Positions 23,926 through 48,900 of a DNA stretch of 64,000 bases are shown here, one piece after another. Position 1 is the first letter of the stretch. Each line of letters opens with the position of its first letter. The stretch comes from Eledone cirrhosa. Its lineage: Eukaryota. The notes below the pieces were generated by a model. The model was not told where the DNA came from. It saw nothing but the letters and a program-made list of their open reading frames with translations, and did not search any database. The DNA is taken from assembly GCA_964016885.1 (NCBI GenBank), contig CAXHJY010000103.1:1-64000 (forward strand), read 5' to 3'. Position numbers and translations under genes: made by a program.

Positions 23926-26856
23926 ATATATATATACATATATGTTAAGTAGTGATAATGATGGTATATATTATTTCTTTCCTTTTCAGTAACAAACAAA
24001 GGATAAAGAAAAGAGAGAAACCAATTTTTATTTTTTCTTCAGCATCAATCCCCAAATCAAAGACAATTCTTTAACAATATCTCCCTACCCAATATTCCAG
24101 AGGGAGCAAAAGGAACTAAAAAGGAAGAAGTGATACTCCACCACCACCACCACCACCACCAAAAACGACATTTTATTATTATTATTTTTTCTGTTTTCCT
24201 TTTCATCATTTACTTTAAACCACTTGTGTTTACTGTGTTTTCTGCTAAATTATAAAACTTGTTGAATTAGAAAAATATTTCATGAACTGATTTTGATACC
24301 CTACATTTTCTGACTCTATCTCAACAAATCTATGGAGAGAACCCTAATTTGATCCAATAAGTTAATTAATCAATCATTACTAATGGATACTTGATTAGTG
24401 TCAAGAATTATACAATCCAGCATCATCATTCTTATAATTAATCTTTTGCTGGTTTCAGTCATTGGATTGAGGCCATGCTGGGGCACTAGATTAAAGGGTT
24501 TTTAGTTGAGTTTATTGACAGAGAATTGGTAGTAGAGATGTTAAAGTGTTGGATTAAATGCCTTAGTATTTGTTCCAGCTTTCTATGCTTTGAGTTCAAA
24601 TCCTGCCAAAAGTCATAACAATCAGTATCAGCAATGGAACCATAGCTTCATTAGTCTGATTTAATGATTGGCTTCTTTCTTTTATTGACAACAGTACTTA
24701 TTTTATTGATCTCTAATTGTTTAATACATACACAAACCACTCAGCAAATGATTAACCATATTATGTTTAACTTAAGATCAAAACTCGAACAACATTATGG
24801 TACCAGGTTTGATCCTACTGTGAGTTGAGGAGGACAGCAACAGTGTGGAAGCCTGTTGTATGTTTACACACACACACACACATATATAATAATAATGAAG
24901 GTGTGTGGCTCAATGGTTGTAGGTTTGAGCTCACAATCGTAAGGTTTTCAGTTCAAATCCTGGACTGGGGAGTGTGTTGTGTACTTGAGCAAGATATGTT
25001 GTTCCAATTTACTCAGCTGTAGAAATGGGTTGCAACATCACTGGTGTCAAACTGTATCGGTCATTGCCTTTCCCTTGGACAACATCGATAGCATGGAGAG
25101 GGGAGGTTGATATGCATGGGTGACTGCTGGTTTTCCACAAACACACCTTGCCTCAGAAAGTAACTTTCAAGGTGCAAAACCATGCTCATTCATGACTGAA
25201 GTGGCCCTACGATAATAATAATGAACAGGAATGAAGTATCAATATAGCATCATTATGTTTATTCACACATTACTGGGTAATTGCTGGCCTTGTGCCAAAA
25301 GTAGAAACAATTATGTTTATTCACACATGACACATGTTTCACAATTGATCAGCTGAAATTACAATTGGTAGTGATCAGGCCCTTGATTCTAGAGATGAGC
25401 CTACTGATTGTAGCTTGAGATGATCAATAATGAAACACATGTTATGTGATTAAACATAATTGTTTCTACTTTAGGCACAAGGCCAGCAATTACCCAGTGC
25501 ATTACTGGTACTTTATTTTATCGACCCCGTAAGGATGAAAGGCAAAGTCAACCTCGGCGGGATTTGAACTCAGATCGTAAAGGGACGTAACTATGCTAGA
25601 AAGCATGGCGTCCGACACTCCACCGATACTGCCAATCCACCACATAATGATATTATATTGATATTTCATTCCTGCTCCTTATTATTATTAATACTCTGTT
25701 TCTTATGGATACCAACTATGGTGAAATACCAAACATAGAATCCCACATTGGTAGCCGGACACAAATATTAGCTTTGAGTGTTCAAACTGATGAGCCAGCA
25801 GTATCTAAACATTACACATCAATACACTATATATATATGTGTGTGTGTGTCTGTCTGTCTAACAGCATCAAGTGCTTCGACCAGTGTCGTAACTAATGAC
25901 CACAAGTTACTCACATAATAACATATATATATATATATATAATTGTATATATCGAATTATACGTATTTCAGTGATACCAGTGCAGAGCTGTTATGCAATC
26001 ATCCCCACAGCCACTGGCACCAGTGACATTATGAGATGTTCACACAATTATGAGTTGATATGTCCTAGGCAAAGACTTCCATGGTTGCAAAAGTCTAGTG
26101 AAGTATATATATATATATATAAAAGTGTTACTGGTTAAGACCAGTAAGACCCTTATTCAACTTAGTACTCAATTGTGAGGCTGTGAGTTCAATTCCTGGA
26201 CCAGATGGTTTGTTGTGTCCTTCAACAAGACACTTAATTTCATGTCACTCCAGTTCACTCAGCTGGAAAAGTGAATTGCAAGGTGACTGGTGCTAAGCTG
26301 AATTAACCTTTGTTTTTCTCTTGGACAACATCAGTGGTGTGGAGAGGGGAGACCAGTATGCCTGGGCAACTTCTGATCTTCCATAAAACACCTTGCCCAG
26401 GCTTATGCCTCTGAAGGAAACTTTCCAGGTGCAAATTACTCTATACTTACGAAAAGTAGAGTGTAAATATTATAAGAGTTTTCTTCTATACAGAAAACTT
26501 TTACTAAATGGTTAGCAGATAAATAACTGAATGTAATTTAATTCAATATATAAACAGTGATGAATATGATTATATATATATATATATAACGGCGATGAAT
26601 TAGTTTTGCGAGGTTTTTGATATGAAATCGTGCAACGAAATAACTTTGATAAACTATATATATGTGTTGTGTTTGTGTCTATATTGTATCTGTATTATTT
26701 TTGACTGTTGGTCAGTCAATGGCAACATTGAGGACCGAATAAATTAGATTACCGATATAAAAGACACAGAAGCGAAAAGTGAAAACCAACCAAACAGTGA
26801 GTGTGTTCTGTTATTAATTCTGGCAATGTTACACAAATATGACCCTCCCCAAGTAT

Positions 26857-36539: not shown

Positions 36540-39500
36540 AAGTGTAGTTAATATGAAGCATTGTGAGATATGTAGTAAATGATTGATAAGTTTTTTAAAA
36601 CCCAGTACAATGTGGTAGAAAATACAAAGGGCAAATGATGGTAAATGAAACAAAACAAAGTAGAGTAATGTTTTACCCAGTGGGTAAAACATTACTTTAC
36701 AGGAGCGGGGAGCGATTAATCAAGATCTGAGAGTAGCTTAGGGGTTGCATGATAGATCCTTACAATGTTTTACAGCTGGATGCCCTTTTAATTGCCTCTT
36801 GTGAAGCACAGGGTTATGGTGTATCATCATCAAAATCAATGTTGGACTAGATCTTCTGTGACAGTTTTTCTATGGCCTTTCCTGGTGCCAACCTATACCT
36901 TACTATTGGTCTCAAATAATCATCTCCCACCACCACCATTTATTAATTTTTCAGACATCCGTCCCATCCTCTTTATTCATTTTTGCTAATCTATCTCCAG
37001 CAAAATATTATTTTAAATGGTAGCATTCCTGCGACAATTAATTTTCTTTAGACATTAAAAAACATTATACATGACAAAAAAGGTACATTACATACGTTAT
37101 AAAATAAATAGGATGGGTTGGGGCCTCAATATGTAAACTAAACGACTAATTGTTTTTTTTTAAATCAATGGTGACAACCTTGAAAAATTACCGATTTTCC
37201 ACCACCACCCGCTTATTCACCCCCCCCCCCCCCCACACACACACACTTATTCCACCCCACCCCTTTATTCCAACTCCCTCACTTATTCTAACTCCCCCCA
37301 CTTATTCCACCCAACCCCCTAATATTTGGGACCCGAGAGTACTTCAAGTATAGTATATAAATGGCTAACAAAGACCCAATAAAGAAACTCACCTGTGCCA
37401 AAGCAAGAGAAACATGTTCTCTGCTGGGATGTAAATAATCAGGAAAATGTTGGATCATCTCTTGACAAAGTTCCTCATCAATACTGACAAACCTTAGAAG
37501 TTCCAATGCTGGAGAAAGATCTAGAGTAATAATAATAATAATAATGAAAAGGATTGTGTACAATACTCAGGTGCACTACAACTCATCAAAAGTGTATGTA
37601 TAGTACATAGAATAATTGTTTCTATTGGCACAAGGCCAGCAATTAACCAGTACATTACTGGTACTTTATTTTATCGACCCCGTAAGGATGAAAGGCAAAG
37701 TTAACCTCGGCGGGATTTAAACTCAGCCAAGGTTAACTTTGCCTTTCATCCTTAGAATAATGTACAAATGTCAGGAAAGGGAACAGTGTATGAGTCACGA
37801 TATACATGTATGCGTGTGTATGGAGGGGGGATATTAGGTGTAATATTGGTGAATTTTAGGAAGCATGGAAGTTTTGAAGGATGCAGTGTCTCGACAGCTA
37901 GCAACTGATGCAGGTAGTTTGTTCCATGCTTCAGTAACTCTGAGCATGAAAAAATGTTTCCGAAAGTAATACGAGCTTTAATGTTTTCTGATTTTGTAAG
38001 CATGTCCATGGGTGTTAGACACATGGAATTCAAAAAGGTGCCCAGGGTTGTTGTTGGCAAGATGGTTAATCATTTTATAGGTCTGTACCAAGTCAGTTGC
38101 CAAAAACAAAAGAAAACAAAGAAGTTAACTTTATTATAATTTATAAATTTTAGATAAAGACTTCATCTGTGATCATCTGTTGAAACTGAAACTGTTACCT
38201 GATGGTAGAGTCTGGATAGCCATTTTATACACACAGCATATATACCTTTATACAACACACACACACTATATATATATACCTTTATATACACACACATACA
38301 CACAGCATATATACCTTTATACACACACACACACACTATATATATATACCTTTATATACACACACATACACACAGCATATATACCTTTATACACACACAC
38401 ACACACTATATATATATACCTTTATATACACACACATACACACAGCATATATACCTTTATACACATACACACACTATATATACCTTTATATACACATACT
38501 CACACACAGCATATATACCTTTATACACACACACACACTATATATATACCTTTATATACACACACATACACACAGCATATATACCTTTATACACACACAC
38601 ACACTATATATATATACCTTTATATACACATACTCACACACAGCATATATACCTTTATACACACACACACACTATATATATATATACCTTTATATACACA
38701 CACATACACACAGCATATATACCTTTATACACACACACACACTATATATATATACCTTTATATACACACACATACACACAGCATATATACCTTTATACAC
38801 ACACACACACTATATATATATACCTTTATATACACATACTCACACACAGCATATATACCTTTATACACACACACACACTATATATACCTTTATATACACA
38901 TACTCACACACAGCATATATACCTTTATACACACACACTATATATATATATATATATATACCTTTATATACACACACATACACACAGCATATATACCTTT
39001 ATACACACACACACACTATATATATATATACCTTTATATACACATACTCACACACAGCATATATACCTTTATACACACACACACACTATATATATATACC
39101 TTTATATACACATACTCTCACACAGCATATATACCTTTATACACACACACACACACTATATATACCTTTATATACACATACTCACACACAGCATATATAC
39201 CTTTATACACACACACTATATATACCTTTATATACACATACTCACACACAGCATATATACCTTTATACACACACACACATTCATCATCATCACCGTTTTA
39301 CGTCCGTTCTTCCACGCTAGCATGGGTTAGACGGGTTGTCCTGTTGTGGGCAGTGTCTGGTCGGCTGACCATGCCTTGCTCATACAGGAACTGATCTGGC
39401 TTGATTTCTACAGCTGGATGCCCTTCCTAACACCAACCTCATTTACAGTGAGTGCTGGGTGCTTTTTCGTGGCGCCTACACGTCCACTTTACAGTGTGGG

Positions 39501-42500
39501 CTGGGTGCTTTTTTGCCGTGGCACCTCCACGGCCACTTTGCGGTGGAGGGGGGGGGGGGCATATTGTTTATATGCTTCAGCATGTACCCATGGGAGGTCG
39601 GGTACCCTGTATTACTGCGTGACGCCAGAAGTCACGGTCGTGTGTCATTGACTTTGAGAGGTGTAGTTGGGTAAGGTCGGCTTTTATCACCTCATCCCAA
39701 GTCATCTTGGGTCTCCCCACTCCGCGGTTTCCATCAACTTCTAGTGCTCTGCACCTTTTTATGCAGCTGTCATCCTTCATACGCATCACATGTCCATACC
39801 AGCGTAACCGCCTCTCCTGCACGCAGCATTTGATTCCTCTTATGCTCAGTCTCTCTCTCAATTCCTTTATGCTTTGTCGTTCACGTATATTACTGTTACA
39901 CATCCATCGGAGCATGCAGGCTTCGTTTCTCTCTAATCTACGTAAGTCTTCCACCTTCAGCGCCCAGGTCTCACTACCATGCAACATCGCTGTTCGGATA
40001 CACGCATCATACAGTCTGCCTTTCATTCTGAGGGAGAAGCCTTTTGCAGCTAGCAGTGGTAGTAGTTCCCTAAACTTCTTCCATCCCGTTCTTACCCTAG
40101 TTATTGTACTTTCTGAGCACCCACCTCCGTTGCTAATTCGGTCACCTAGGTAGCAGAAGCTGTCTACTGTTTCTACAGGGCCCTCCCAGAGATTGGTGGT
40201 ACTTGTTTCCTGTGGCTGTTTGCTTGCTGTTTCAGCACAGCTGCTGCATGTGAATCCTACATTCTTAATTAAGCTTCCTGAGATCCCGCTACATCTCTTG
40301 TGTACCCATTGTTTGCATTTGGGGCAGAGAATGGAGTTTCTACCTACACCTTTCCTACATACTGAGCAAGGCCATTTCCCTGAGGGGATCTGGGTTCTGT
40401 TTTCTCGTCTACTTACAAGGACCTTAGTCTTTGTCATGTTGACTTTGAGACCCTTTCTCTCTAGTCCCTGCTTCCAGATTTGGAATTTATTCTCTAGTTC
40501 TACCATAGATTCAGCTATGAGTGCGAGGTCATCAGCATACAGGAGTTCCCATGGGCATCCGGTCTTAAACTCCTCCGTTATTGCCTGCAGGACTATGATG
40601 AACAGGAGAGGGCTAAGAACAGAGCCCTGGTGGACCCCAACCTGTACGCTAAATTCCTCGCTATACTCATTGCCAATCCTAACTTTGCTGACTGCTCCCC
40701 TATACATGGCTTGTACCGCTTTCACAAGCCATTCATCTACTCCTAGTTTTCTAAGAGCCCACCAGATTACTGCACGTGGAACTCTGTCAAAGGCTTTCTC
40801 AAGGTCGACAAATGCCAAGTAGAGTGGCTTACTTTTAGCTAGGTACTTTTCCTGTAATTGCCTCACAAGGAAGAGGGCATCAGTGGTGCCTTTCCCTGGT
40901 ACAAACCCAAATTGCATCTCGTCTATATTCACCCGGTCCCTAATCAGCTGTGCTATAACTCTTTCTGTTACTTTCATGACCTGGTCCATCAACTTTATAC
41001 CTCTATAGTTTCCTCTATCTAGTGCATCGCCTTTACCTTTGTAGCAGTTGACAATGATGCTACTGCACCAATCTTTTGGTATGGCCCCCTCTAGTATTAC
41101 CTGGTTAACGATACGTGTGGTTATAGTGTGACCTACAGACCCAGATGCCTTCAGCATCTCGGCAGCTATACCCGATGGACCGGTTGCCTTCCCTATCTTC
41201 ATATCTCTGATTGCCTTACTTACTACGCTGCCGCTGACTTGTACTGCTGGTCCCTCTATAGGGTCTACGTGGGGTAGGGTCTCTTCTTCCCATGCATTCT
41301 CCTCATTTAGTAATCTATCATAATGACTCTTCCATGCATCTTTCTTCTCAGCACTTGTGAGGGTAAGCTCACCTTTATCATTCCGGATACACTTCTCTCC
41401 AATGACATCACAACTATCTCTGACACACTGCCTCGCAATCTTGAATACCTCCTGTTTCTGGTCCTCACGTTGTAAAACATGCTTGAATTTTCTATCCTCT
41501 GCTTCCCTCCTAGCTAAGTATACTTGTCGCCTAGCTTCCCTCTTGGTCTCTATGTAATGTACCCTGCTCCCCCCGTTCTTCCATTCTTTCCATGCCTGTC
41601 TCTTGGCCTTGACTGCTTCATCTACCTTATTGTTCCACCACCAAGTCACTCTCCTCCTGCTTGAGGTCTTACTCCAGCCACAAACCTCATCCGTCGCCTC
41701 TAGTAAGTTATTTTTTAGGAACTCCCAGTTCTCTTCTACGTTAAATGTCTCTATCTGTTCTTCTTTACTGTCGTAGGCGTTGAGTAAAATATCTTTAAAT
41801 CTGTTACTGGTTGAGGGGACTTTCAGCTTCCAGATCTTTCTTCTCCAGGTTGGCCTCTGTTTCAGGGCTTGTCTAGTTCTGACCGTGAGGTCGCTGACAA
41901 CTAAGCTATGTTGGGATGTACATTCCTCACTAGGGAAGGCTTTTGTGTTTACGACCGTCCATCTGTCACGTCCTCTGATGAGGATAAAATCTAACTGACT
42001 AGAGTGCTCCCCTGATCTATAGGTGATCAGGTGGTTGTCGGGTTTTTTAAAGTTTGTGTTACATATCGACATGTCATTGGCGTCGCAGAATTCTAGAAGT
42101 CTGAATCCTTCCTCATTCCTTGTGCCAACTCCATGGCCTCCATGTACTCTATTGAAGCCGTCGCAGTGTTTACCTACGTGTCCGTTAAAATCTCCTGCAA
42201 TGATTAGGAAGTCCTTGTCGTCTGTTAGAGCAGTAGTGTGTATTAGGGACTCGTAAAACCTATCCTTAAGTTCGTCTGGCAGCCCCGATTGGGGTGCGTA
42301 AGCTGATATTATTGTGGTAATTGTCTTATTCAGGACTAGTCTAAGTTTAATGATTCTTGCATTTACCCTGTACACTGAGATTACTTTATCTACCCACTTG
42401 TCAGCTAATAGTATACCTACACCACCCATCCCATCGTCATTTCCCACCCAGAAAAATTTGTAGCACTGGCTTTTTCCTACAAGGACTCTAGCAGACCCTC

Positions 42501-45500
42501 CTCTCCATCTAGTCTCTTGCACACAGCATACATCAACTTCCTTTCGCTCTAGCATTTCTACGATTTCTCCTGCTCTTCCTTTCATTGAGCCTACATTGAT
42601 GGTACCAACTCGGAGTTTTGGGCATTTGTCGACACTCGTAGGGGAGGGTCTCTGGGTTGGCGCTTCACGTGGGTGCTTGGTAGCTCGCAGATTCATATTT
42701 CATCTATTGATTCAGAGTTGCTCGTGTATTCCCAGCTCATCCATCCATAACGGTGGGAAAATTGAGGGCTAGAAGAACAGTGGTGGTGGGGTAATGGCAG
42801 GGTGTGTTGGGATGCGCCAGAGGAGGAGAGAGTTAGTTAGGCAGGTAGTAGCAGCAGCAGTGGAAATGGCATGCTAGGTTTGATTGGTCGAATAGACTAT
42901 GGTGGTGTGTGGGGGTGGGGGGGAGGGAAATTGTGAGGTAGGAACTGAGGGTCGCATGGTAAATATCCAAGTTAATACTACATCAGTAAAATTAACAATA
43001 ATAACGTCATGAAAAAAACTACTAAGAGAAACCCTAGAAAATTTATCGCTAATACAGCAGGGAAAATTTAACGCTAATACAGCAGGGAACATCATAATAA
43101 TATAATAATGAACATTATAATTATATAATAATGAAATTATTGTGTACAGTGCTCAGGTGCACTACAACTCGTCAAAGGTGTATGTATAGTACATAGAATA
43201 ATTGTTTCCACCTTTGGCACAAGACCAGTAATCACCCCAGTGCACCACTGGCAACCCACCCCATCGACCCCGTAAGAATGAATGGCAAAGTTAACCTCGG
43301 CAGGACTCAAACTCAGATCAGAAAGGGACGTAACTCTGTGCTGCAAATCATGCTATCCGACCCTCCACCGACACCGCCAAATGTCAGGGAAGTGAATAGT
43401 GTATGAGTCATGATATACATGTGTGCATGTGTATAGAGGGGGAATATTAGATGTAGTGTTGGTGAATCTCAGGAAGCATGGAGGTTTTAAAGGATGCAGT
43501 GTCTTGACAGCTAACAACTGATGCAGGTAGTTTGTTCCATGCTTCAGTAACTCTGAGCGTGAAAAAATGTTTCCAAGTCATGGGAGCTGTGCTGTTTTCT
43601 GACTTTGTGGGCATGTCCACGTGTGTTAGACACATGGAAATCAAAAAGGTACTCAGGGTTGTTGTTGGCAAGATGGTTAATAATTTTGTGGGTGTTTACC
43701 AAGTCAGTTGCCAGACGTCGGAGCTTCAATGTATCCATGCCCAGGGAAGCAAGGCGTTCAGAGTATGGTAGATGCCTGATGGAGGGTATTCGCTTGGTTG
43801 CACATCTCTGAACAGTTTCCAGGCGGTCAATGTTCTGAGCAAGATAGGGGTTCCAGACTGGTGATGCAAATTCTAAGTGTGGCCGCACCATAGCCATGTA
43901 CAGCTTTAAATAGATAGCTGGAGAGCAGCTGACAAAGGTCTTGCTGAGTGATGCTAAGATACCCTCGGCTCTCATGACAATTTTAGAGACGTGCTTCGTC
44001 CAATGCAAATCGCTGCTGACAGTAATGCCCAGGTCACGTTCACAAGAAGACTTCTTGATATTAGTGTTGTGGAGGGAGTATGTGGACGCTGGGTTTTCTA
44101 CTCCCAAAATGAATGATGATACACTTGTCCACAGCTAGCTTGAGTTGCCAATCTGTGATCCATTGTTGCATTGTGTCCAGATTGCAGGCAAGATCTAGTG
44201 TTCAGGATCTGCATATACACACACACTATATACACCTTTATATACACATACACACATCATATATACCTTTATATACACACATCATATTACCTTTATATAT
44301 ACACACACACACACCATATATATACCTTTATATACATACTCATCATATATACCTTTATATATACATCATATTTACCAGTATACACCCATTTGAAGTTGAT
44401 AAAAAAAGTACCAGTTTAGTACTGGGCTGATTCTTCTTCTATATCTCTTTCTCACTTCCATTTATTCACTTTCTATCTTTCTCTGGAAGAAATCTGCTGT
44501 ATTTGGACCAGGAGAGGGATGGGCTCCGTCAGGTTTAAAAATGCCCAAGAAACGCTGTATATCAATTCGGTGCCACTACAACTCCCTGAGGAGTTATGAG
44601 ACCATGCATGCATTCATATATGTGTGTCCAACCCTTGCTTGCAGGGAAAATGGATAATAAATCATACAACACATTGTATATCAGAAATTTAATGTAAATG
44701 TAACTACACTTTTAAAATTATAAGCCTTGCTGTGAAAAGAATGGAGTGCAAACATTTTCGTTTATTTTCTGTGTACACAGGAAAACACGAGATATTACCT
44801 TTAGACATTTTAGAGATTGCTTCCCCATCAGAAAATATCTACCCTTATGATTTTGCCAGCAGCTTATAGCAATTGCTATTTATATCAAGCAGGATGCAGA
44901 ACTTAACTGAAATGTAAAGATGGAATAATAGAAAGTGTGTTTACACTTCATTCTTTTCGCAGTAAGACTTATTAAAACTGCATTTTTTCTGTGTTAATAT
45001 GAAAGTCAGAGTACCAACATGTTTTATGACCAACATCATCATCGTTTTATGTCGGTTTTCTACCTTGATATGGTTAGGATGATATCTAAGACTAGATAAG
45101 TTGGATGACCACATCCTGCTCATACATTCCAATTTGGCATGGTTTCTACAGCTGGAGGCCTTTCCTAATGCCAACTACTTTACAATGTGAACTGGGTACA
45201 TTTTATCATGGCACCAGCACTACCACTTTACAGTGTATACTGGGTGTATTTAATCATGATTCTGGCAGTATCACTTTACAGAATGAACAAGGAGCATTCT
45301 ATTGTGGCACCACTGTTACCAAACACACATTAATCAGAGGAGGAGGAGGAGGAGGATAAATTAAATACTTACCACACTTGTGTACTAAATTCTGTCTCTT
45401 GAGGAATTGACAGCAAACTGATTGATTCACCTGTAAAATAGAATGATTACTTATCACACATACCTGTAGCAATGGAATGATGGAATAATAGCTTATCACA

Positions 45501-45904
45501 TACCTGTGGTAATTTTAAAAAATGTTTAATAATTCTGAAGTGGAGTTTAAATCCAACCAGCATGCTTCTAATATAAACTGAACAAATTTTATTTTCCCTC
45601 AAACCTTATCTATGCACCTCGGAATCTTGTGAAATTATATTCCTCCATGGAAAACTTGCCAAAGAGTAGAGAGGACTCTTCAGTTGTGCCAAAGACATGA
45701 CAACATCCTCAGTTTGGGTGCCATGATAAAATGTATGGTGTACTATGTAGAGTGGCTCCAGCTGAGTTCTGACTTGTCCAGTCCTTGCTAGCAAGGAAAA
45801 CAAACATTAAATGATGATGATGATGGAAATGACGATGGTGGTGGTGGTGGTGAGGATGATGGCGGTGGTGGTGATGATGGCGGTGGTGATGGTAGTGATG
45901 ATGA

Positions 45905-45938
<34 letters not shown>

Positions 45939-48900
45939 GGTGATGGTGATAACGACGATGAAGACAATGATACTTCTAGCTACTCAATCAATAGCTATAG
46001 GTAGAATATGTCTCAAGATGAGACAAAAACAGTTTCTGTTCAACTAACTCCCCTTATAAGGCATTGGTCAGTCTGAGGTTATGGTCAGTCTGAGGTTATG
46101 GTCAATGTGAGGCGATGGTCAGCCTGAGGCTATAGTCAATCTCAGGCTATGGTCAGTCTGAGGTTATAGTCAGTCTAAGGCTATGGTCAATCTGAGGCTA
46201 TGGTCAGTCTGAGGCTATGGCAGAAGACACATGCCTGTGGGGCCAAACAGAGGTTTAGGACCCTTCAACCATGTAGCCACATGTGTGTGTGTTTAGTCAT
46301 ATATGAGCCCTAATAAAACAGACTTATGATTAATTTTCCTCTAAGTAAACCATTAAAATAAATCTAGTCGTATATGTATACATGTGTCTATCTATAGAAA
46401 ATGGTAATATAACTTACATCATTGTCATTTCTGTACAACAATTTCCTAAGCCTTAATTTAACAGTCCAATCCAAAGATCTTATTTCTTCTTCCAACCATA
46501 ACACAGCCTTTTCTGTAGAGGAATAAAAAAAACATGAAAAAAATATATCCCCATTTCTATAGTTTGAGATAATGTATAATTATAGCAGGTACAATAATAA
46601 AAGTATGCTTCTGAGATTAGAAAAAAGACCAGCAGAATCTACAGAACTGCAGATGTTGTCCACAGATGTTGGCTTAGGACTCAGGATTTCTTGGTGTGAG
46701 CACATCATGGAAAGAGCCAGGATACCGTTACTGTAAGATGACAGAAGATGATAGGCCTCATACTTCATATGTCCACATAGACACCAGTGAGAGGATCTCT
46801 TGAATGAGGGGGATGGGTGCAGAGGCATAACTAGGATATAATAAATATGGCACGTGCCATGAGCACCACATGAAGGGGGTGTCACTTAGACTATGAGCAC
46901 ATTCTATTAAAGTCAAATAAGCGTTGTCGGAGAGTGAAAAAAGAAACGCCTTCAGATCTATGATCTGTCTGATTATCATGGGTGAGAACACTATGGAGGC
47001 TGGATCAATAAACCTTTTATATAAATTATTAGGCGCAATTTCATTGCTTGCCATAGGTGATATATTCCCTTATTATGCCTCTAGGTAGGTGGCATATGAT
47101 AGGCAGACCTATGAAGACATGGTCCTGGCTTGGATTCTGGATTGTAATAGAGCTTGCAATTGTGCTGGATGGAGATCTTTTATTGCTCAAAGATTCATAG
47201 GAGCAGGAGGAACCAAGTATTTTGTTTGATTTTGACATCTTGGAAAAAAAGATAAATATAAAATGTGGAAAGTGATATATGTATGAAGGCAACAATACAA
47301 AATGGATGGGAAGATGAAGGCAATGAAAAAGTTAGTTACCTGGTAATCTCTTTTTTTTGTTTTGTCCTAATATTTCAGGACTTAAAATTCTCTGTCAGAA
47401 TGTAAGGAACTCTCAGAGCAAAACATTCTGGTCTATTCGCTTTGAAATTAGATGTAAATAAATATATATTTACTTCTTTTGTTAAATATTAGGTAATGAA
47501 TTGGCAGAGTCATTAGGGTGTCAACCGGAATGCCTTGTGGTATTTATTCTAGCTCTCTGCATTCTAAGGCCAACTTTGCTTTTCATCCTTTTAGGGTCAA
47601 TAAATAAAGTACCAATCCAGTACTAGAATTGATTCTTCTTCTCTCTCATTTTCTTTCTGGAAGAAATCAGTTGTGGTGAAACCTGGAGAGGGATGGTTGC
47701 TATCAGTTTTAAAACACCCAATACAGGTAATGTGTCACTACAGGCCTCCTACAATACCATCAGAAGTGAAGGGAGCAGTGAAATAGAGAAATTAAATATA
47801 CAAATTAACTCACCTGATACAGGAGTGTACTTATTGTTAATCAATATATCAATCACTTGGTCTATCAAACCAATCAGCATTGATTTCATGTTCACCTGTT
47901 GTTTTGATTGATATCTTTGATTGATATCTTCATCTTCCCACAATTCAGTGCAGTCATTCAAAGCATAACAGAGATGTAGAAGGACAACATGGAGTTGTAT
48001 GTTGTCACAACAGGATCTTATTTGGGAATCTTCACAACTGAAAACAACAGATGCCAACTGCAGCATTAAGATGGGGTTATGGTGGTGCCAGTCTGAAGAA
48101 CTAAGTAGATGAAGCTGTGGCAGAATAAAACTCCCCAGAATTTCACTACCCTGGAGGACACTTTGGTTTATTCCATATTTTTGGCAAATACCTATAGAAA
48201 AGGACTAAAGAGGGAAGAGAGAAGAAAAGAGAACAAAAGGAATTAATATTGTTTTGTTAATTAAGGGTGGGGGAGTTGGTGGAATTGGTAGAGTATCGGA
48301 TAAAATGTCATTGTGGTATTTGTTCTGGCTCTTTACATTCTGACTCCAAATCCCACAAAAGTAACTTCAATTTTCATCCTTTTAGAGTTGATAAAATAAA
48401 GTACCAATCAAATATTGGAGTTGATATAACCCTTTAGCATTTACATTACTCTATATTTACTATTATATTTTCATGGTAAAGGTTTTATCTCACATAATAC
48501 CAAATCTATGAGATTTTGATGTTATTTATGTTTAGAACGATACCTTAACGTAAGTATAAGTGACCAGTTACAGCCAGTTTGAACAGAAAAAGGTGAGACA
48601 ATTCTGGCCTGATACATCCGGTTTAAATGCTAAAGGTATAATCAACTTTGCCTTTTGTCCAAATTTGCTGGCTTTGTGCCTAAATTAAAAACCAATGTTG
48701 ATTCGTTGATTAAATATGAAATATTTGGCAGAGGATTTTGCTTTTGGTGGATGTTGTTTTATTGTGTTAAATGTGTTTTTGTAGCTGAGTAATTGTATTT
48801 ATATGGTGGGTCATGGCTGGTTTGACAAATCCCACCACACTTGACATACACCCATAACCTCACACTTATTTCTCTCTCCCAACAGAGCAGAGAAAGTTCA

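Follow-up and report, generated by a model that had tools for sequence, protein, structure and literature searches.

In a 64,000-nucleotide stretch of DNA from Eledone cirrhosa (contig CAXHJY010000103.1, positions 1 to 64,000; hereafter the window), a copy of a tRNA-type short interspersed nuclear element (SINE) at 43197-43380 carries a dense cluster of A>G changes confined to one strand. This copy most probably derives (we put the probability at about 0.85) from an RNA hyper-edited by an enzyme that, judging from the pattern, would be an ADAR, and then retrotransposed into the germline by the reverse transcriptase (RT) of a long interspersed nuclear element (LINE). An action of ADAR on RNA before reverse transcription is indicated by the strand, the density and the 5' context of the changes, by their confinement to duplex arms at other loci, and by a tailed edited copy that can be set against its unedited source. 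The cluster genuinely exists in the assembly, departs strongly from randomness and belongs to a process that has occurred repeatedly. An earlier note, made from the letters of the window, had proposed that RNA editing was written into germline DNA through retrotransposition, and the strand bias, the neighbour context, the unskewed flank and the other loci support that proposal.

The SINE has its sense on the minus strand, covers consensus positions 6-188, being slightly 5'-truncated, and possesses A- and B-box-like motifs at the 5' side and an AT-rich tail at the 3' side. Relative to the majority base among the 29 genomic copies closest to it, 19 of 49 sense-strand As are replaced by G and 1 of 53 Ts by C, the remaining differences being five C>T, one G>A, three transversions and a one-base insertion; the initial estimate of about 18 changes in 180 bp, with other substitution types far fewer, was thus close to the count. 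With a single G>A, there is no APOBEC-type excess of sense-strand G>A. When only well-conserved columns are considered (142 kept, 46 variable ones dropped), the figures are 17/39 for A>G and 0/46 for T>C. As background, 103 SINE copies were taken from 61 stretches of 10 kb at arbitrary positions; their A>G rate is 2.2%, no copy has more than four such changes, and the excess of the target over family divergence is significant (binomial p=2e-18). Two sibling SINEs of the window on the minus strand, at 11761..11946 and 25456..25640, serve as unedited controls with two A>G each in conserved columns. The changed As of the target follow T in 8 of 13 cases, A in 9 of 17, C in 2 of 11 and G in 0 of 8; the difference between G and the other 5' neighbours (p=0.012) runs counter to a random context and bears out the earlier description of U or A as neighbours, with two Cs and G spared. 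More than half of the changes (10 of 19) fall within 43245..43262 (minus), where two entire A-runs are affected.

No subfamily sharing these changes was found, each of 65 other aligned copies having at most three A>G, and ordinary shared inheritance is accordingly disfavoured; the closest other genomic match reaches 84% identity (40 of 3387 candidates scored in the 3.0-Gb genome). Moreover, the skew stops at the edges of the SINE. The adjoining CR1-like LINE body (43381..44205, minus, 5'-truncated), which comprises the end of an RT reading frame and the 3' untranslated region (UTR), has 16 changes in 767 conserved columns, one of them A>G and one T>C (1/218 As and 1/193 Ts), as the earlier note had stated for this flank. 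The 3' end of the same LINE (43117..43202, minus), lying downstream of the SINE and having about six bases in common with the SINE tail at a recurrent insertion site, lacks the skew as well.

Similar footprints recur across the genome. A genome search with five tight patterns, each requiring three A>G changes in sense or antisense orientation, returned 49 matches, 45 of which carry at least six changes of the same type and zero to three of the opposite type, and the other four, without extra skew, are false positives. The matches are redundant, since a single locus accounts for four of them and a single inherited family for 19, and roughly 15 separate events can be discerned by eye. Control patterns forcing triple G>A returned no match and those forcing triple C>T a single one without further skew; the controls are 28-29 nt long and most test patterns 19-28 nt, so the match counts are not strictly comparable. 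Once the pattern sites are masked, the pooled 5' context (A 0.45, T 0.40, C 0.22, G 0.11) again runs against an upstream G. Antisense-edited copies outnumber sense-edited ones among the matches, since the RNA that was edited is in many cases the transcript of a host element in which the SINE lies in reverse orientation. The attribution of the changes to the SINE sense strand therefore stands for the target and fails as a general rule. Wherever it can be read, the changed strand is instead the sense strand of the host retroelement, namely in an RT-bearing LINE family, in the host of a hairpin family (by eye) and in the LINE of the target.

A direct comparison between source and copy is offered by a pair of loci on C1 and C5. 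The sequence at G000 C1:296,728,635-296,726,494 is a 2.1-kb duplicate of C5:118,786,300-118,788,653, the sole full-length paralogue (9 of 9 candidates scored), and the inverted SINE pair of the C5 locus is unedited. Preceded by the 3' end of a truncated retroelement, the C1 copy terminates in seven As at a point past which the C5 sequence continues; it appears to have arisen by a process resembling 3' transduction, and no convincing target-site duplication was found around it. In this copy, A>G changes affect 24 of 67 and 22 of 56 As in the two inverted SINE arms (46/123 in total), whereas the counts are 9/377 for the upstream part, 0/32 for the spacer and 0/52 for a third SINE (9/461 in total; arms versus outside, p=5e-26), and their 5' context is T 18/34, A 18/40, C 8/26 and G 2/22. 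The C5 locus later gained an extra SINE between the arms, so its present fold does not reproduce the ancestral duplex.

The link with duplex structure is also evident in the hairpin family, five copies of which (on C1, C2, C3, C6 and C17) hold one inverted SINE pair inside a non-autonomous element. The 3' end of this element matches that of an adjacent LINE that ends in a zinc finger and that we take to be RTE-like. Every one of the five copies has changes in both arms, and these lie on a single strand, the host sense strand. Specifically, the antisense arm has 9-14 changes per copy, while in the sense arm 9-18 of 30 As are changed in the paired part and 2 of 17 in the unpaired part, at the same two sites in every copy. 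The sets of changed sites differ between copies. Of the 120 informative site pairs, 64 conflict with simple inheritance (42 of 78 once CA sites are set aside), which suggests that the hairpin transcripts may have been edited repeatedly. No unedited hairpin source was detected by a junction pattern, whose four matches are all edited.

Edited sequence can also be multiplied. The 19 matches of the inherited family share one edited antisense SINE fragment upstream of a LINE reading frame with an RVT_1 domain; the fragment lies on the LINE sense strand, its copies are dispersed on several chromosomes, and a further member was encountered in the random sample. Because one edited fragment occupies the 5' ends of at least 19 LINE copies, an edited RNA likely founded an active LINE lineage, and some of these copies have additional, separately edited SINE insertions at the same place. 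Two other loci, C2:367.006 Mb and C1:356.650 Mb, contain three SINEs in both orientations that are changed on one strand over 0.8-1.6 kb; possible origins are retrocopying from a source that the assembly lacks, conversion in place and polishing errors. In a broader proposal, ADAR would be a germline mutator, whose edited transcripts insert, amplify through active LINEs and also overwrite their own locus by RNA-templated conversion. Such conversion would account for edited tracts that span three SINEs and have no paralogue, and, if true, it would be a route by which RNA edits become hard-wired in genes; we nevertheless hold the proposal as a whole to be unlikely.

The favoured origin of the target, an ADAR-edited and retrotransposed RNA, can be laid out in four steps. 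A SINE-bearing RNA would pair with an antisense SINE, whether within one transcript or in trans; for the target this pairing is presumed, and inverted pairs exist elsewhere in the genome. Within the duplex, about 40% of the As would next be deaminated, with those after G spared, a pattern that is observed and that points to ADAR as the probable agent. Reverse transcription would be primed at the AT-rich tail of the SINE in a hot spot of the CR1-like 3' UTR, a designation that follows from 29 other SINE-in-LINE loci, and inosine would be read as G, as is established for reverse transcriptase. The resulting copy would finally join the genome, where it is seen in the assembly. The same route would recur genome-wide, mostly through transcripts of LINEs or non-autonomous retroelements that carry a SINE, and the edited sequence could afterwards be amplified as an inherited variant. 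With regard to the enzyme, the A_deamin domain (PF02137) has 12 matches on three contigs, C1, C6 and C25; the family also covers the ADAT and ADAD relatives.

The setting of the target accords with the third step. The SINE sits in the 3' UTR of the CR1-like LINE, on the same strand, and 29 other loci have a SINE at the identical position. Their subfamilies and 5' junctions differ, which marks them as independent hot-spot insertions and disfavours a mobile LINE-plus-SINE composite as the source of the target. The junctions of the target, tail-primed at the 3' side and with a short microhomology at the 5' side, resemble those of the other insertions, and the target looks like one tail-primed hot-spot insertion. 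Its own junction recurs in only two other copies, both unedited and of other subfamilies, and a one-off composite RNA is a possible origin. An origin of the locus by duplication was rejected, the left flank being a separate young high-copy element. As for the source RNA, the changes other than A>G are more frequent in the target (7/137) than in the LINE flank (17/851; p=0.04), which hints at a diverged copy rather than a master.

Several observations weigh against an edited RNA as the origin of the target or complicate it. No unedited source was found among 23 copies that have two private variants in common with the target, all of which differ otherwise, and no antisense partner was found within 40,000-48,500, a range from which a partner in trans or truncated away would escape; the nearest SINE on the opposite strand (48276-48406) is unedited, and the self-fold of the target SINE is no better than that of shuffled sequences (z=-1.14). 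The 3' context is inconsistent: pooled values (G 0.41, C 0.38, A 0.32, T 0.18) conceal a disagreement between the two sets, in that a 3' G is favoured when a copy is antisense-edited (0.50) but not when it is sense-edited (0.18). The five hairpin copies have 12 of their 40 changed sites in common, and reversion may also account for part of the site incompatibility, given that 25 of 140 cells have A at sites changed in at least two copies, while the G>A background is 1-6 of about 55 per copy. The edited loci at C2:367.006 Mb and C1:356.650 Mb yielded no paralogue. Contigs of four of the 24 raw-data runs were swamped by paralogues, and no piece specific to the target was seen among those listed; they speak neither for nor against the changed bases. 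In addition, invertebrate hyper-editing prefers A downstream according to one report (PMC5625713), unlike the mixed 3' context here, and another reported that ADAR1 did not edit L1 RNA in human cells (PMC5224506).

The preference for a 5' A or T is also a signature of polymerase eta, and it fits the idea that the changes were made on DNA, during or after insertion, either by a strand-coordinated burst of an error-prone polymerase of this type, with A>G after A or T, or by deamination of the DNA strand in an RNA:DNA hybrid or a single-stranded hairpin. The target, with no visible RNA partner, is compatible with such an origin, and editing of the cDNA strand would yield antisense-edited copies. 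Nevertheless, the changes end at SINE edges and at the arms of inverted pairs, they reach about 40% of the As, and of the C1 and C5 loci, which both contain the inverted pair, the tailed duplicate alone is changed; furthermore, the two arms of a hairpin carry their changes on the same genomic strand, an outcome that cannot result from editing of SINE cDNA. A DNA-level origin is thus very unlikely.

An error of assembly or polishing, for instance edited RNA reads leaking into the consensus, draws some plausibility from the placement of the window on a 70-kb contig, from the uninformative raw-data check, and from the fact that RNA-based polishing could produce edited loci without a paralogue. 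Conversely, an element that ends about 95 bases away from the target matches 7 of 7 compared copies at 99.8-100%, 19 LINE copies spread over several chromosomes, as well as one random stretch, contain one and the same edited fragment, and polishing cannot create a new locus with its own junction and A-tail such as the C1 copy, all of which leaves an artefact highly improbable. Ordinary divergence, an unrecognised subfamily or GC-biased gene conversion could draw on the elevated non-A>G changes of the target, which are better referred to a probably diverged source copy. This explanation is largely refuted and has next to no probability, as the target departs so far from the background, with only one-strand A>G raised and no T>C in conserved columns, as its best other match stays at 84%, and as none of the 23 variant-sharing copies carries its Gs.

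Among known systems, the footprint is comparable to ADAR hyper-editing of inverted repeats in RNA, whose rate in Octopus bimaculoides was described as exceptionally high by Porath et al. 2017 (PMC5625713). The two share dense one-strand A>G clusters, depletion of an upstream G and a link to long duplexes; there the changes are in RNA reads relative to an unedited genome, whereas here they are in assembled DNA. In bovine leukemia virus (BLV), proviruses examined by PCIP-seq included three with ADAR-type clusters of at least seven A>G in about 70 bp (PMC8025556). In both cases edited RNA would be reverse-transcribed and integrated, but BLV is a somatic, exogenous retrovirus, while the present copies are non-LTR (long terminal repeat), apparently germline, recurrent and once amplified by an active LINE lineage. 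Knisbacher and Levanon described APOBEC editing of DNA that became fixed in LTR retrotransposons of vertebrates and reported it as absent in 19 invertebrates (PMC4866542). Strand-biased deaminase footprints in single germline-fixed copies are the common trait, yet those changes are sense-strand G>A that derive from C-to-U in the cDNA of LTR elements, and the present ones are A>G in SINEs and LINE passengers and affect duplex arms only. Lastly, Orecchini et al. detected no editing over more than 2.5 kb of L1 RNA and ascribed restriction by ADAR1 to an editing-independent mechanism (PMC5224506); ADAR meets retrotransposon RNA in that system too. No report of germline ADAR-edited SINE or LINE copies was found in the literature searched, whose coverage was incomplete; the only precedents found are the somatic ADAR-edited BLV proviruses and the germline APOBEC-edited LTR elements.

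A-to-I editing is usually treated as non-heritable, and here its footprint occurs many times in an assembled genome, with the C1/C5 pair as an internal control in which an unedited source stands against an edited, tailed duplicate. If confirmed, this would mean that ADAR acts on retrotransposing RNA in germ cells or early embryos, that genomes preserve, in the manner of fossils, the duplex structures and editing preferences of the past, and that an A>G counterpart to APOBEC footprints exists in an animal group reported to be without those; the conversion of RNA edits to DNA would be testable from genomes alone. As a caution, some apparent genomic A/G differences between repeat copies would be old edits.

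Among the features of the target that concern its function, the presumed Pol III promoter motifs, assigned by box consensus, are both altered. The B-box-like motif (43303..43314, minus) has two A>G and one C>T, at 43306, 43308 and 43309, and the A-box-like motif (43368..43379, minus) has two A>G, at 43372 and 43375. Owing to the altered B-box-like motif, the copy is likely a poor Pol III template. The host LINE is presumably CR1-like on the basis of a C-terminal RT motif in its translation, and Pfam gave no match for this fragment; ARAGORN found no tRNA in the window. The hot-spot site itself (43197-43202, and loci L032-L060) displays varied target duplications, deletions and microhomologies among independent SINE insertions. 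A second SINE-in-LINE composite at the same site lies at 37529-38102, with an unedited, 5'-truncated SINE, a short inverted segment and a target duplication. The young element adjoining the LINE tail spans 42450-43102; its 39 scored copies are 99-100% identical, and many copies contain a tandem array with a unit of about 400 bp, in which the final 150-165 bases of the element are included. At G000 C6:13.644-13.646 Mb, the A_deamin domain is encoded in a single intronless open frame of 700 aa, a candidate for an intron-poor ADAR-family gene or a retrocopy.

Several other loci have features of their own. L108:650-1480 (G000 C18:17.44 Mb) holds tandem units of about 62 bp, drawn from the CR1-like 3' region, together with a LINE 3' end; by eye, these have several sense-strand A>G, which stand outside the counts given above, and they are possibly edited LINE RNA that was later tandemly expanded. 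L073/L074 (G000 C3:122.634-122.635 Mb) are two inverted copies of an element that, judged by eye, resembles Penelope elements. Both carry an edited antisense SINE fragment, and their edits lie on opposite genomic strands, each following its own host copy. L122, L143, L145 and L149 hold an edited antisense SINE fragment (consensus 36-188); the last three have common flanks, which by eye are related to the hairpin host element, and this suggests a second inherited edited family. At L142:1100-1290, simple TA/TG repeats beside edited SINEs appear G-rich on the edited strand, and it may be speculated that editing of self-complementary TA repeats could feed microsatellite change.
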